Shown in pieces: positions 14,147 to 18,168 of a stretch of 64,000 nt of DNA. Positions within the stretch are counted from its first letter, which is position 1, and each line of letters begins with the position of its first letter. Source of the DNA: a phage. The notes below the pieces were generated by a model. The model searched no databases. It was given only the letters and a program-made list of their open reading frames with translations, and was not told where the DNA came from. Both the position numbers and the translations under genes were made by a program. The stretch lies in assembly GCA_012813795.1 (NCBI GenBank), contig GCA_012813795.1_4087.1. One strand, 5' to 3'.

Positions 14147-14698
14147 TTATCCACCAGAACTCGTGTGAGCGGCACTTCTGGCTACTGAAGACCCAAACCC
14201 ATTGCGGGTGATTGTGGTCGTTGTAGGAGGTTTTGGAGCTAATGCGGAACTTGATACAGTACGTGTTGTACCTTTTGCAGTACTGCTACCGTAGGAGTTA
14301 CCACCAGCATCATAGAAGTTCCCTTTAGAGTTGTATAGTGGTTGACTAGCAAACCCATTACCACTACTATGGAACCCGCTCATGATTGGAATCCAAAAGA
14401 ATCCCGAACTATGTTGTTGACATTGATTACCAAAATCGCTAGAGCAATCACTCTGTGAACTATATTTTGGTGCTACCTTTTCCGATTCAGTGAGTGCTTT
14501 CTTATAATCATCATCACATTGTACAGGATTACTTCCTGACTTTTTACATTGGTCTGCGTTCTGATATACAGAAATATCTTCAGAGCGTTCACATCCTGTC
14601 ATAATAAAAGTACTACTAAGTGCCAAGGCAATCGCTCCGTACTTAATAGTTTTTACTTTACGAAATCGTTCACGAATGACATTAGAACTTCGTTTCAT
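14147..14698 (-). CDS. putative lipoprotein, Gly/Ser/Thr-rich
   Basis: signal-like N-terminus ending IMTGC; TAATG overlap with upstream gene. Confidence 0.6.
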   Translation of the reverse strand: MKRSSNVIRERFRKVKTIKYGAIALALSSTFIMTGCERSEDISVYQNADQCKKSGSNPVQCDDDYKKALTESEKVAPKYSSQSDCSSDFGNQCQQHSSGFFWIPIMSGFHSSGNGFASQPLYNSKGNFYDAGGNSYGSSTAKGTTRTVSSSALAPKPPTTTTITRNGFGSSVARSAAHTSSGG

Positions 14699-15081
14699 TA
14701 TTTGTCAATCCCCATTCGTTTGGAACGCATATCTACGTGAATTGATTCCAGCTTCTTAACACCACGATATAGCCAATAGAACGCAGTAATAATAAGAGTA
14801 CCACACGGAATCAGAACACTAAAGAATGTTACGAATCCATAGAACGTTGCCCCATCATCACCATTCATGCCACCAAATATTACTTCAATAACAACAGAAG
14901 CTACGGCGAACATATAATATGTCATACCCATAACAACTGCTATTTGTCCAGCACTACTTTTTTCAGCACGACGAACCCAATTGAATACTGGATTAATACA
15001 GAAGTAGTATAGAAGTAACCAGACTGAACCTAAAGCGAACACTGCAATTTCAAAAATACAAAAGTAATCACGATAAGTCAT
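14698..15081 (-). CDS. small polytopic membrane protein (tandem array)
   Basis: 127 aa, several hydrophobic segments; stop/start overlap with neighbours. Confidence 0.6.
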   Translation of the reverse strand: MTYRDYFCIFEIAVFALGSVWLLLYYFCINPVFNWVRRAEKSSAGQIAVVMGMTYYMFAVASVVIEVIFGGMNGDDGATFYGFVTFFSVLIPCGTLIITAFYWLYRGVKKLESIHVDMRSKRMGIDK

Positions 15082-15434
15082 TATTTCATCCTCTCACCTA
15101 AACGTTTGTGTAGTTTACATAATTTGTCAAAAATGGTCAACGACATACATACAGTAAATCCAATACAGGCTAGTGTTAGACACATTAAATCTGCCACCAT
15201 ACCAGCTACAAGCAATGCACGAGCTTCAAGTAATAACCCAAATAGCATTGCAAAATAACCGAAATAGTATGCAACTGAAAAGAGTGTTATAGCATTACCA
15301 ATATAGTACACAATATTATCATACCAAGTACTGAATGGTTTCATGTGAAAGAATTTCATCACAAGTAGTACAGACAACATAAAGAATACCAGTGTACATA
15401 ACATGAATATAACTTGCCCAGCAGGAGAAAACAT
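15081..15434 (-). CDS. small polytopic membrane protein (tandem array)
   Basis: 117 aa hydrophobic; 1-nt overlap with neighbour. Confidence 0.6.
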   Translation of the reverse strand: MFSPAGQVIFMLCTLVFFMLSVLLVMKFFHMKPFSTWYDNIVYYIGNAITLFSVAYYFGYFAMLFGLLLEARALLVAGMVADLMCLTLACIGFTVCMSLTIFDKLCKLHKRLGERMK

Positions 15435-15436
15435 AA

Positions 15437-15820
15437 TTAACCTCGTTTCTTACGTTTAATGTTATTGTGAATTTCATAAAAGAAAGGAACAATAGCAGTA
15501 CAGATTAAATTATACATAAGAATAATCATGAACAATAACCCGAATATTGAAGAAAACACTAATCCAATAATGCACAGTACTGGTTCACCAATTGAAGTGA
15601 TTCCAATCCCGAATACGTATACAATCCATGTGAAGATAGTGGTTACTAAGCAAATGATATATCCAACATGGAAGAAGCACTTAGATTCGTAGTCGGATTC
15701 AATATCCTCATACACATCTTCGACGAACTTTACACAAAAGAACTTTCCAATGTATATTAATGCACCTATTGTTAGACATGCACTTAGGATATTAAGAATA
15801 ACATATATTGTTGTGTACAT
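15437..15820 (-). CDS. small polytopic membrane protein (tandem array)
   Basis: 127 aa hydrophobic; C-terminal KRKKRG. Confidence 0.6.
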   Translation of the reverse strand: MYTTIYVILNILSACLTIGALIYIGKFFCVKFVEDVYEDIESDYESKCFFHVGYIICLVTTIFTWIVYVFGIGITSIGEPVLCIIGLVFSSIFGLLFMIILMYNLICTAIVPFFYEIHNNIKRKKRG

Positions 15821-16140
15821 TATACCCTCTTATCTTTTTGTTTACGATGGAAATTTGATACCAAAGAACATAACTTTCCAATATAACTACAGAATGCTGC
15901 GAATACACACAGTCCTGCAAATAATGTACACAATGACATATTCAAATCATTATCAGGTGGATTGAATATAAGCAGTACTACCCATAATGTACTAAGCAAT
16001 GTAAAAGCTACATTACCAGCAGCAGCATTTTTACACTGCTTTGCATAGAAGTCAAATGGTTTTAGTGCAAAGAGAAAACCAATCCAGCAAACCCAAAAGT
16101 AGAATGCACTTACTGTGAAAAGAATCAATTCAATCTTCAT
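15820..16140 (-). CDS. small polytopic membrane protein (tandem array)
   Basis: 106 aa hydrophobic. Confidence 0.6.
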   Translation of the reverse strand: MKIELILFTVSAFYFWVCWIGFLFALKPFDFYAKQCKNAAAGNVAFTLLSTLWVVLLIFNPPDNDLNMSLCTLFAGLCVFAAFCSYIGKLCSLVSNFHRKQKDKRV

Positions 16141-16141
16141 A

Positions 16142-16477
16142 TTATTTCCTGTGATCTGGGATAGAGTTTCGTAGTTTAACTACAAATGGATACAAAAGCA
16201 CACCAATGTAAACAATAGTCGATATCCAGTAAAAACCCAAGGAAATGATTTCACCATTAGAACGTTTACCAGTACTGATAATTCCGTAATGGATGAATGG
16301 CATCACAGTCGATGACCAAAACCAGCAGTGAAGTTTAACACTCATCAGATGATTATCGATGAATTCACCGATTGGACGTTTAAAGAACCACATCAAGAAA
16401 TAAAACCCAGCGGAAATGATGTAGTAAATTGTACTTACTTTCAAGTACCACGGTAGTAAACTGATAAAGTACTCCAT
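16142..16477 (-). CDS. small polytopic membrane protein (tandem array), WFFKRPI motif
   Basis: start moved to Met35 of track ORF (GGAGG RBS, TAATG overlap with upstream stop). Confidence 0.6.
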   Translation of the reverse strand: MEYFISLLPWYLKVSTIYYIISAGFYFLMWFFKRPIGEFIDNHLMSVKLHCWFWSSTVMPFIHYGIISTGKRSNGEIISLGFYWISTIVYIGVLLYPFVVKLRNSIPDHRK

Positions 16478-16830
16478 TATGCCTCCGGTATTTTGTTGCG
16501 TGCAAATAACATTTTTTTCCACACAATATTCGATAGAATTACAATTAGTGTTGGAATACATATCATAACAAAGGTACATAGCATAAAGTTAAGATTATCA
16601 CCGTGACCTAATCCTATGACTGTAAGAACTGCACCCATAGTATACGTGATTGAGGTTGCAATTACAACACTTTCATAGTACTCTGAATTATTAATCTTGT
16701 AGTAAATTGGACGTTTGAAATACCATCCAATGAAGTTTAGAACCATCAAAAACGGATATAAGATAATGAGTACATAGTTCAGTGTACTAGCAATATCACT
16801 GGTTGTCAACCATTTAATAACCTCTTGCAT
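16477..16830 (-). CDS. small polytopic membrane protein (tandem array), WYFKRPI motif
   Basis: 117 aa; paralog of 16142..16477. Confidence 0.6.
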   Translation of the reverse strand: MQEVIKWLTTSDIASTLNYVLIILYPFLMVLNFIGWYFKRPIYYKINNSEYYESVVIATSITYTMGAVLTVIGLGHGDNLNFMLCTFVMICIPTLIVILSNIVWKKMLFARNKIPEA

Positions 16831-17168
16831 TAGTAATCTCCACGAATTTTATCTCGACCTACAATGAGTAGACGGATTAAGTATATTGCAATCCAAATAA
16901 TTAGACCCAAGAACACAACGTATTGTGTGATTGATTCTAAGTGTGTATTTGTACAATATATAACATGTGTCAGAATTCCAAATAGAATAAATCCACCTTG
17001 AATGATACTATACATAACAAAAGCACTGTTATCATATGAGTATAGTTCAAATACTACTTTCTTTTTAAAATACCAAAGTACTACAACTAGTAAATGATAA
17101 AATAAAAAACCAATCATGTAAATCAAAGTAATACTAAGCATCGTATCAGATGAAAAAAAATCAACCAT
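16830..17168 (-). CDS. small polytopic membrane protein (tandem array), WYFKKK motif
   Basis: start moved to Met9 (GAGG RBS 7 nt upstream). Confidence 0.55.
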   Translation of the reverse strand: MVDFFSSDTMLSITLIYMIGFLFYHLLVVVLWYFKKKVVFELYSYDNSAFVMYSIIQGGFILFGILTHVIYCTNTHLESITQYVVFLGLIIWIAIYLIRLLIVGRDKIRGDY

Positions 17169-17175
17169 ATAAACC

Positions 17176-17397
17176 TCATCGTGTAAAGTCAATGAATGTT
17201 GATAGTAGTACCATGTATACAGACACTACAGTAATTAAAACAATAATTTTTAAACCCAGTGGTGCTTCTTGAGGATTATACTCCTTTTCAGTATCAATAT
17301 CAAGTGTATGAAACCATCTATAAACTTTAACTAAAACGACAATCATGTTAATACATGAATATAATAACATGACCTTATCGATGTTATGTGTTATCAA
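17176..17397 (-). CDS. small membrane protein
   Basis: 73 aa, two hydrophobic segments. Confidence 0.5.
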   Translation of the reverse strand: MITHNIDKVMLLYSCINMIVVLVKVYRWFHTLDIDTEKEYNPQEAPLGLKIIVLITVVSVYMVLLSTFIDFTR

Positions 17398-18168
17398 TTA
17401 ATTTTTCTCCAGGAACAAGTTTTCACATTGCTCTTCCCAATCGTATGGGTTGTTGTTGTATACTGCTGAAATCAACAGTGGCATACGCAGTGAAGGTGAA
17501 CGAAGTGAATCTTCGTGCTTCAACATCCAGTTCAGGATTGCTTTACTACCATTACTGTTAATACCCTTAGATTCCAGAATGTTGGTCTGATTCATCACGT
17601 TCTCAATGTGAATCATGATATCGCTTTTGGTCTGGATCTGTAAGTCAACGTATACAGAGCGAGACATAAGAGCAGCATAGTGAGCAGACATTTTAGTTTT
17701 AGCTTTAGCATTCAGTGCTAAATCTTTGTTAGTAATGAATACGATGCGACCATTAAAATCAAAGCTGTTAGGGATACCGTTGCTGCTCAGATACTTCGAG
17801 CTAGTCATATAAGAAACAGTACGCTTGCCACTATCCAGTACTGCTTTGAGCAGGTTCATACCGTCTTCTGAATCAAAGATGCTGTCCATATCATCCAGTA
17901 CTAACACGTTGGTGCTATGACGATTCTTGTACAGAACTTCGTACAGAGCCAGAGTTGTCATTTTACCACTGATGGTAGCTACATTCCATTCTGCTGCGTC
18001 ATGAGCTTTCTGGAGGCGTTTAGACAGGGTGTAAGTCTTGCCAACACCAGGAGCACCACTGACAACCATACTTTTTACAGTACTGCTATCGTCGAGCAAA
18101 CACTCAAGAGCAACCATCATGGAGTTGAAGTTTTTCTGGATTTGAATGCTACGGGCTTCTCTGGTCAT
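17398..18168 (-). CDS. P-loop NTPase (AAA-like ATPase)
   Basis: Walker A GAPGVGKT and Walker B VLVLDDMD; GAGGA RBS; driven by module A1. Confidence 0.7.
   Translation of the reverse strand: MTREARSIQIQKNFNSMMVALECLLDDSSTVKSMVVSGAPGVGKTYTLSKRLQKAHDAAEWNVATISGKMTTLALYEVLYKNRHSTNVLVLDDMDSIFDSEDGMNLLKAVLDSGKRTVSYMTSSKYLSSNGIPNSFDFNGRIVFITNKDLALNAKAKTKMSAHYAALMSRSVYVDLQIQTKSDIMIHIENVMNQTNILESKGINSNGSKAILNWMLKHEDSLRSPSLRMPLLISAVYNNNPYDWEEQCENLFLEKN

Follow-up and report, generated by a model that had tools for sequence, protein, structure and literature searches.

A variable operon of three-helix membrane proteins, an AAA+ ATPase and a predicted DUF1190 lipoprotein in an Asteriusvirus jumbo phage

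Introduction

Small early proteins acting in the host envelope are an established means by which phages exclude competitors, as exemplified by Imm and Sp of phage T4, Llp of T5 and Cor of phi80 and N15. The present study concerns an operon at positions 14,147 to 18,168 of a 64,000-nucleotide stretch of phage DNA (contig GCA_012813795.1_4087.1 of the assembly GCA_012813795.1; hereafter the window), in which an array of small membrane-protein genes, m1 to m8, is located between a gene for an AAA+ ATPase and a gene for a predicted DUF1190 lipoprotein. The operon resembles the exclusion proteins named above in specifying small, probably early, non-structural and accessory envelope proteins that vary between relatives. 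Moreover, like Imm and Sp taken together with the lipoprotein-based Llp and Cor, it pairs predicted inner-membrane proteins with a lipoprotein. However, Imm, Sp, Llp and Cor are encoded by single genes, possess one or two transmembrane (TM) segments and showed no sequence or fold similarity to the array proteins in the searches made, and none of them forms a 7–12-copy array of three-helix proteins coupled to an AAA+ gene.

Further described systems are related to individual parts of the locus. Class I holins such as lambda S105 comprise approximately 100–130 amino acids (aa), three TM segments in N-out/C-in orientation and a basic cytoplasmic tail. The array proteins are alike in predicted size, number of helices, topology and basic tail, but show no homology to a holin family, lie far from the endolysin and spanin genes, follow an early-type promoter and occur as multi-copy tandem genes. 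Regarding the ATPase, the closest described protein is NrdC.10 of T4 (phrog_1250), an AAA+ ATPase that is conserved among phages and has no known function. Both share the Walker A and B motifs, the AAA+ fold and approximately 40% sequence identity, whereas the Rak2-like version lacks the first 76 profile residues and is followed by a membrane array, which is the case only in this clade. Bacterial relatives of the lipoprotein are tied to envelope stress of the Cpx and PspA types: YgiB is Cpx-regulated in Citrobacter rodentium (bioRxiv 10.1101/2022.08.05.503015), and YjfM was described as a metal-chelating lipoprotein occurring in PspA-type operons beside the DUF350 protein YjfL (PMC11237479). 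In Escherichia coli K-12, yjfL, encoding a DUF350 inner-membrane protein, is located immediately upstream of yjfM (DUF1190). The phage lipoprotein is a true DUF1190 protein, and the same order of a small polytopic membrane gene followed by DUF1190 is found in the phage. In contrast to the bacterial pair, the phage membrane proteins do not belong to DUF350, their genes number 7–12, and the operon contains neither an ATP-grasp ligase nor a PspA partner. Finally, hyperplastic regions (the plastic periphery) of T4-like phages also harbor small, fast-changing accessory genes between conserved ones, with cassette-like exchange among close relatives; the block described here differs in consisting of one paralogous family of conserved architecture that is kept across genera. 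The array represents a clade-restricted membrane-protein family in a conserved operon context and is a variant of known phage accessory envelope cassettes. No description of it was found in the searchable literature on DUF1190/YgiB, NrdC.10, Asteriusvirus membrane proteins and jumbo-phage paralog arrays.

Results and Discussion

Profile comparison places m2 to m8 in one diverged family of membrane proteins

The minus strand of the window from 18168 to 14147 carries ten consecutive open reading frames (ORFs), namely the ATPase gene, m1, m2–m8 and the lipoprotein gene (Table 1). Eight co-oriented small membrane-protein genes had been listed here in a preliminary description made from the DNA letters, and inspection of the ORFs and the sequence confirmed their positions and minus-strand orientation. 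Based on profile similarity, m2–m8 are seven paralogs of one diverged family, and m1 is excluded from it. Pairwise BLAST among the seven window proteins returned weak links for m2, m3 and m4 only; therefore, profiles of ortholog groups were required. Arrays were gathered from phages PBECO4, 121Q, BF17, G17, RaK2 and GAP32, Serratia phage BF and Xanthomonas phage XbC2, which yielded nine ortholog groups that were compared by hhalign. Family members were defined by a length of approximately 100–130 aa, three TM segments, a W-[YF]-F-K-[KR]-P-like motif after TM1, a basic C-terminal tail of the type [LF][RH]x[KR]..P/KRG, and mutual profile similarity. All nine groups were connected with E-values of 1e-4 to 5e-8, and most of these alignments were in register and spanned the whole proteins. 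The weakest link between groups was that of m2 to m3 (E 2.5e-4, first 40 residues), and every control with a reversed template gave E > 0.018 and a probability below 3%. The paralogy assumed previously for at least three of the proteins hence applies to all seven of 106–127 aa.

The ORF m1 was considered as a further three-TM member and rejected (hhalign probability of 0.45% against the family). It possesses one or two hydrophobic segments, is specific to the lineage of the window and Escherichia phage A4, shows 79% identity to its A4 counterpart and is absent from PBECO4. The A4 counterpart (comparison sequence L001, 6173–6391) is labelled 'endonuclease V', which looks like an annotation error.

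The joint alignment of the family follows the plan TM1, a G-W-[YF]-F-K-[KR]-P-like motif, a loop, TM2, a short turn rich in D, N, G and P, TM3, and an amphipathic basic tail, e.g., KLRNKIPD or QYFGRKRGK. The aromatic-lysine motif noted in the preliminary description is real, but it is located after the first and not after the second TM helix. A family hidden Markov model (HMM) applied to the 264 ORFs of the window detected the seven array genes and two weak dispersed matches, and nothing else comparable. It also found 12 tandem members on metagenomic contig L017, 7 on L020 and 3 on L021, in each case behind a homologous ATPase. Since the proteins of these three contigs had not been part of the HMM building set, they independently confirm the family. 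The arrangement is not attributable to chance, because the HMM is specific within the window and retrieved 12 tandem untrained members on an unrelated metagenomic contig.

One of the dispersed matches, at 23339–23689, is an eighth family member (family HMM E 9e-6; hhalign probability 90%, E 1.6e-6, versus 2.6% for the reversed control), and PBECO4 contains two copies of this gene type (L002, 12662–13030 and 13359–13697). A dispersed three-helix ORF at 30125–30457 (minus strand) shows a weaker resemblance (hhalign 70% versus 5% for the reversed control).

The proteins had been credited with two to four hydrophobic segments each. Their polytopic nature was borne out, but the number is uniformly three for m2–m8. 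Three segments were apparent in six of these seven proteins in Kyte–Doolittle windows; m4 showed two above threshold, and its third helix became visible in an AlphaFold2 model computed from a 25-sequence alignment (pLDDT 82.8, pTM 0.69; helices 10–32, 45–68 and 72–105, short helix 34–42). For the homologous GAP32 genes, the deposited annotation likewise records three TM domains by TMHMM and Phobius. The mean number of lysine and arginine residues in 47 members was 0.36 for the N-terminus, 2.77 for loop 1, 0.45 for loop 2 and 5.02 for the C-terminal tail. According to the positive-inside rule, an N-out/C-in topology is therefore predicted, with both family-wide motifs on the cytoplasmic face. 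In the m4 subtype, the end of TM1 with loop 1 and the C-terminal tail are most conserved, and TM2, loop 2 and TM3 least. The start of m4 was assigned to the ATG overlapping the m3 stop codon, the mechanically derived ORF of 145 aa being too long.

Remote-homology searches, which had been proposed for these proteins, returned a clade-restricted family. A profile search of 5.8 billion clustered proteins gave 22 matches, none with a Pfam domain; all named ones originate from Rak2-like phages except for one entry assigned to E. coli. When 1.84 billion representatives were searched exhaustively with HMMER, 21 matches of 106–128 aa were obtained, aligned end to end. Matches from both searches measured 106–129 aa, apart from two truncations of 83 aa and one fusion of 189 aa. 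In PHROGs, the window members are spread over at least six families without functional assignment, with m7 lacking an assignment, and the whole family over at least seven. No Pfam model represents the family, and no significant Pfam match was obtained among the 44 members scanned. Furthermore, Foldseek with the m4 model found nothing significant in the Protein Data Bank (PDB; best E = 2) or BFVD (best E = 1.1), and in the PADLOC defence and anti-defence library neither the membrane proteins nor the lipoprotein had a match, the matches of the ATPase being noise. As judged from these searches, the family is small, confined to the Rak2-like clade and uncharacterised.

The operon keeps its architecture but diversifies rapidly

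The order ATPase, three-helix array, DUF1190 and convergent RCC1-like genes also occurs in RaK2, GAP32, Serratia phage BF and XbC2, with array copy numbers of 3–12 across relatives. Among the metagenomic contigs reached through ATPase homologs, L020 (ATPase identity of 82%) carries seven array members and DUF1190, L017 (59%) twelve members and L021 (50%) three; L018 (42%) and L019 (36%) carry no array. Outside the clade, no link between ATPase and array was found in T4-like phage JS10, Roseobacter phage RDJL Phi 2 or the contigs L018 and L019. Each of the subtypes m2–m8 has a single counterpart in 121Q-type phages, and each except m7 has one in RaK2, the gene order being nearly unchanged.

Within this framework, variation is pronounced. 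Positions 14000–18300 of the window match Escherichia phage A4 (355 kb) with 97% identity over 93% of the query (megablast), which assigns the DNA to Asteriusvirus. Approximately 30 other Asteriusvirus genomes (PBECO4, 121Q, phAPEC6, G17 and others) match the ATPase gene only, the homology ending at query position 3397, i.e., at the ATPase stop codon. Amino-acid identities of the ATPase are 97.7% to PBECO4/121Q and 69.9% to RaK2; those of array members are 28–64% and 26–37%, respectively. Even against A4, m2 is only 40% identical, while its neighbours reach 95–100%. An m5-type gene is split into two short annotated ORFs in 121Q (L010, 3261–3576), probably by a frameshift, and phage SD-15_S21 carries a truncated m3-type gene (L013, 4430–4654). 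Comparison of the window with A4 yielded a pooled ratio of non-synonymous to synonymous polymorphism (pN/pS) of 0.40, based on 15 non-synonymous and 10 synonymous changes; m4 and m5 together account for 10 non-synonymous and 1 synonymous change, and m3, m7 and m8 show values of 0.11–0.27.

Several lineages contain additional or overlooked genes. In PBECO4, an unannotated m7-type gene is located in a 400-bp 'gap' (L002, 4871–5296). A conserved 42-aa non-membrane ORF (MKPEQWIIEDMRRLRKTE…LQWYVKVLQEKD) lies within or at the head of the arrays of RaK2 (L003, 3005–3130), L020 (7771–7899) and L021 (8270–8398); it has no annotation in RaK2 and is absent from the window. In Mimasvirus and Eneladusvirus (L006, GAP32, 3416–4180 and 5669–5947; L007; L009), the array is interrupted by a soluble protein of 254–266 aa without family match, followed, before DUF1190, by a single-TM protein of 92–107 aa; neither is present in the window.

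Signals at both ends suggest a single transcription unit

The window is AT-rich (approximately 35% GC), and its strand-specific GC skew changes sign at approximately 14 kb, where convergent gene blocks meet. Directly upstream of the ATPase gene, a promoter at 18226–18197 with a consensus score of 11/12 and an extended -10 TG overlaps a terminator-like hairpin at 18233–18206. At the opposite end, the bidirectional terminator postulated between the array and the beta-propeller genes was recovered as a strong intrinsic terminator shared with the convergent RCC1-like genes. A scan of the operon interval between these two elements revealed no comparable promoter or terminator signal. Based on the consensus matches, the operon is inferred to form a single transcription unit of approximately 4.1 kb that would be read by the host RNA polymerase, probably early. 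The translational coupling described for the array was corroborated, with TAATG overlaps at five of the eight junctions downstream of the ATPase (m2/m3, m3/m4, m5/m6, m7/m8 and m8/lipoprotein); the genes at the remaining three are separated by 1, 2 and 7 nt.

Near-identical copies of the promoter cassette, each consisting of a GC-rich hairpin with UUCG loop, a T-run and an overlapping TTGACT-18-TG-TATAAT promoter, are also located at 20440–20411 and 21172–21140 (minus strand) at the head of successive minus-strand gene groups. The recurring cassette looks like standard punctuation of early transcription units.

The flanking genes encode an NrdC.10-type ATPase and a predicted DUF1190 lipoprotein

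The flanking gene recognised initially by its Walker motifs encodes an AAA+ protein of the NrdC.10 type. It matched phrog_1250 with an E-value of 1e-103 at profile positions 77–326 of 327, in agreement with the missing T4-type N-terminal extension, and gave weak matches to Pfam AAA families. Homologs of NrdC.10 are present in 1309 phage records; those of T4-like phages are often mislabelled 'thioredoxin'. The residues G38, G41, G43, K44, D92 and D93 are invariant across 41 ATPase homologs. The AlphaFold2 model (pLDDT 93) displays a complete AAA+ module with alpha/beta core and helical lid. Foldseek matched it with a probability of 1.0 to ORC/Cdc6, RuvB, ClpA, Bcs1 and CbbQ, and a sequence search against solved structures gave marginal P-loop matches only. 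As the fold is about equally similar to these proteins and to sigma-54 activators, it provides no pointer to a function.

The flanking lipoprotein noted in the preliminary description was identified as a DUF1190 protein of the YgiB/YjfM type. It matched Pfam PF06693 with 108.6 bits (gathering cut-off of 22; E 5e-31) at profile positions 2–156 of 159, and NCBIfam PRK11653 with 153 bits (E 9e-45), below the equivalog cut-off of 223. Residues 31–36 resemble a lipobox by sequence, aligned homologs showing LTGC, LTAC, IAGC or LSGC. DUF1190 homologs were found in 135 phage records of Rak2-like phages, Agricanvirus, Vequintavirinae and Moonvirus, occurring without an array in the latter three. In 121Q-type phages, an unrelated 219-aa protein without family match takes the place of DUF1190. 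The neighbours of the DUF1190 gene in the rV5-like phage 4MG (L004, 4595–5945) are a gene for a PnuC transporter and genes for unrelated small two-helix membrane proteins of 72, 60 and 123 aa, so that a tendency of DUF1190 to be located among membrane-protein genes is seen even outside the Rak2-like clade.

Lysis genes of the clade map elsewhere, and a related virion proteome does not list the array products

The curated spanins of 121Q are gp511/512, encoded at 245 kb, and their PBECO4 and GAP32 equivalents are likewise far from the array (PMC6139136). The array of 121Q is located at 113–117 kb, and its endolysin is gp532. The report on phage CBB (PMC5259590) also places the endolysin of the clade apart from the array and describes an N-terminal TM domain for it. 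A two-component spanin would comprise an i-spanin with one TM segment and a coiled-coil periplasmic domain as well as a small outer-membrane lipoprotein encoded next to or within it. This identity was rejected for the gene products, since the array proteins have three TM segments and hardly any periplasmic domain, the lipoprotein belongs to DUF1190 and measures 183 aa, and the curated spanins are encoded elsewhere. Neither Pfam nor PHROGs assigned array proteins to a holin or spanin family. Furthermore, no Pfam or PHROG match supported a relationship to T4 Imm, Sp or other superinfection-exclusion proteins; a single SieB match (E 0.055 in 1 of 44 members) is regarded as noise. The virion proteome of phAPEC6 lists the products of the neighbouring RCC1-like genes, gp003–010, but not gp011c–018c, which correspond to the array and the ATPase (PMC7247149, Table 1).

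Features of the window and neighbouring genes

Table 1. Features of the operon, its transcription signals and a dispersed family member
Feature	Position	Strand	Length	Description
Terminator hairpin and promoter	18197..18233	minus		Hairpin overlapping near-consensus sigma-70 promoter TTGACT-18-TG-TATAAT; directly upstream of the ATPase gene; likely operon start
AAA+ ATPase	17398..18168	minus	256 aa	T4 NrdC.10 homolog; Walker A GAPGVGKT, Walker B VLVLDD
m1	17176..17370	minus	64 aa or 73 aa	64 aa from ATG 17370 (AAGG upstream; more likely) or 73 aa from TTG 17397
m2	16830..17168	minus	112 aa	From ATG (listed TTG start gives 120 aa); motif LWYFKKK; phrog_19454
m3	16477..16830	minus	117 aa	GWYFKRP ... 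RNKIPEA
m4	16142..16477	minus	111 aa	Best-conserved subtype; FYFLMWFFKRP ... KLRNSIPD
m5	15820..16140	minus	106 aa	Three-TM family
m6	15437..15820	minus	127 aa	Three-TM family; GKFFCVKF ... IKRKKRG
m7	15081..15434	minus	117 aa	Three-TM family; MKFFHMKP ... LHKRLGERMK; orthologs in 121Q and BF17
m8	14698..15081	minus	127 aa	Three-TM family; phrog_27618
DUF1190 predicted lipoprotein	14147..14698	minus	183 aa	YgiB/YjfM type; lipobox-like FIMTG-C; four-Cys region; phrog_3739
Bidirectional intrinsic terminator	14115..14145			13-bp stem flanked by T tracts; terminates the operon as well as the convergent RCC1-like genes
Dispersed eighth family member	23339..23689	minus	116 aa	Three TM; contains LLFFRYNTFYKRY, ends KLRDKLPER

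The convergent block at 264–13555 (plus strand) comprises approximately ten RCC1-like beta-propeller genes, most of which share the N-terminal peptide MLPFVRMLEYGN; it is also poorly conserved among Asteriusvirus genomes. On the other side of the operon, at 18236–20155 (minus strand), a 639-aa protein is encoded that consists of many tandem repeats of approximately 65 aa containing HGDLYDYSKVEY..…C.IH..YGEF. Counterparts in relatives vary in length (e.g., 565 aa in A4, 379 aa in PBECO4) and are labelled endonuclease, homing endonuclease or 'exonuclease ABC C subunit'. The 639-aa protein has no significant Pfam match; genes nearby on contig L021 match DUF723.

Small ORFs with N-terminal signal-like hydrophobic segments are located on the minus strand at 21186–21752, 33246–33521, 33889–34134 and 42202–42528. 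The first three are lipoprotein-like in that their segments end in a cysteine (LSGC, LTAC and LTAC, respectively). Together with scattered membrane ORFs of one to four helices, these small ORFs suggest that the early region encodes many envelope-targeted products.

Possible functions of the operon

With high confidence, the locus is regarded as an accessory, rapidly diversifying, non-structural operon that supplies the inner membrane with a set of small paralogs and, in many lineages, also the periplasm with a YgiB-like lipoprotein. As a tentative step beyond this, the products may be non-structural envelope proteins that are made early and serve superinfection exclusion or protection of the envelope. 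Three features favour an envelope-directed role: the promoter is of the early type, the array is accessory and changes fast, and the lipoprotein has a pedigree in envelope stress. Hypervariability, promoter type and absence from the virion proteome are compatible with both superinfection exclusion and envelope remodelling, two of the functions considered in the preliminary description. According to this proposal, the host RNA polymerase would read the operon early, and the small paralogs would be placed in the inner membrane and the lipoprotein in the periplasm. The set would then act on the envelope of the infected cell and keep competing phages from entering or injecting their DNA, in the manner of T4 Imm and Sp; alternatively, it would stabilise the envelope during the infection cycle. 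Each paralog may cover a different target, with divergence being driven by an arms race, and the ATPase may be a mere operon neighbour.

Several observations weigh against the exclusion or protection proposal. Homology ties no array member to exclusion or any other activity in PADLOC, Pfam, the PDB or BFVD, and the promoter consensus is the one indication of the presumed early timing. Mass spectrometry of virions readily overlooks small membrane proteins, and the substitutions relative to A4 are too few to show positive selection. Moreover, DUF1190 is missing from many arrays (121Q type, L017 and L021) and is therefore not an obligatory partner. Finally, the fixed order of paralog subtypes from Asteriusvirus to Alcyoneusvirus and the tight coupling would fit subunits of a single complex equally well.

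The last point leads to other explanations of the same data. The array products could assemble into a hetero-oligomeric inner-membrane complex, e.g., a channel or translocon, on whose cytoplasmic W-F-F-K-R-P and C-tail motifs the ATPase would dock, with the lipoprotein as periplasmic partner. The array is located directly behind the ATPase in every Rak2-like lineage examined, including metagenomic contigs with 50–82% ATPase identity; TAATG coupling favours co-ordinated synthesis, subtypes hold their order across genera, conserved positions lie on the predicted cytoplasmic face and the ATPase is a complete AAA+ module of the ring-forming kind. Such a complex nevertheless appears quite unlikely. 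The NrdC.10 homologs are mostly T4-like and lack the array, as do JS10, L018 and L019, and the ATPase therefore has a function of its own, its adjacency possibly being inherited synteny. Furthermore, 3–12 copies with members swapped, split or truncated in viable phages are unusual for an obligate complex, and the ATPase is 97.7% conserved while its supposed partners are 28–64% identical. A counter-defence or host-takeover set is unlikely, although not implausible: each protein would inhibit a different inner-membrane protein of the host (abortive-infection effectors, proteases or transporters), and divergence would track host strain diversity. The cassette is indeed hypervariable between phages from different E. 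coli and Salmonella strains, its early-type promoter, non-structural character and individually dispensable members fit, and m4 weakly matches (E 0.0014) a PHROG filed under 'moron, auxiliary metabolic gene and host takeover'. However, similarity to known anti-defence proteins is lacking, the most conserved parts face the cytoplasm, whereas contacts with a target TM helix would be made in the membrane core, and phages of Klebsiella, Cronobacter, Serratia and Xanthomonas retain the same subtypes.

The class I holin architecture (three TM, N-out/C-in, charged C-terminus) was found in prediction by hydropathy, charge distribution and the AlphaFold2 model, and the available part of the CBB report mentions no holin beside the endolysin with its N-terminal TM domain (PMC5259590). 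That the proteins form or regulate membrane holes and control lysis timing is still very unlikely, given that no member has a Pfam or PHROG holin match, the sigma-70-promoter unit is located beside early-type genes such as denV and away from lysis genes, a tandem array of seven to twelve holins would be without precedent and a holin expressed early would be lethal. Highly improbable is the assumption of evolutionary filler, i.e., of small hydrophobic ORFs that arose by duplication, currently have little or no function and drift in a plastic part of the genome. Extreme divergence, variable copy number, split or truncated copies in some relatives and the excess of non-synonymous changes in m4 and m5 would be expected of it, but frames, three-helix plan, motifs and gene order are kept in at least four genera and in metagenomic relatives at 45–60% ATPase identity, translational coupling is preserved, and the pN/pS values of m3, m7 and m8 are low. 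The idea of a captured and amplified bacterial YjfL/YjfM envelope-stress pair, with diverged DUF350 proteins, was raised by the yjfL–yjfM order, which equals that of m8 and the lipoprotein, a true DUF1190 protein, together with a weak DUF350 match of m8. It is exceedingly improbable. DUF350 (PF03994) was touched by 1 of 44 members (m8, E 0.008, under the 26-bit cut-off), more weakly than by random matches to other membrane families, and hhalign of the nine subgroups and the whole family against a 22-sequence YjfL alignment gave probabilities below 3%, equal to the reversed controls. In addition, DUF350 proteins have four TM segments in two 2-TM repeats versus three here (hydropathy, AlphaFold2 and the deposited TMHMM/Phobius notes), and DUF1190 occurs without the array in other phages.

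Conclusions

The refutations envisaged in the preliminary description, i.e., known holin or spanin homology or a lack of TM helices, did not materialise: the lack of holin or spanin matches in the databases and the position of the clade's spanins speak against the former, and hydropathy, the m4 model and the GAP32 annotation against the latter. Seven to twelve 'hypothetical proteins' per phage are resolved into a single family whose topology is defined and whose cytoplasmic motifs are conserved. The family is accompanied by a host-derived envelope-stress lipoprotein and does not represent a lysis cassette. The operon changes faster than almost all of its surroundings and is therefore a likely site of conflict with hosts or rival phages.

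Jumbo phages of the Rak2/121Q group are under development for therapy, and the function of few of their genes is known. Should the operon serve exclusion or protection of the envelope, it could influence how phage cocktails behave as well as host range, and it would offer a new experimental handle on bacterial DUF1190 proteins. A bolder and rather unlikely possibility is that ATPase, three-helix array and YgiB-like lipoprotein constitute a previously unrecognised, clade-specific phage envelope system, either a modular 'membrane immunity', in which each paralog would close a different entry route or neutralise a different membrane-acting threat, or a heteromeric machine assembled by the ATPase. 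If true, this would amount to a new protein family and a novel way in which phages control the envelope of their host.

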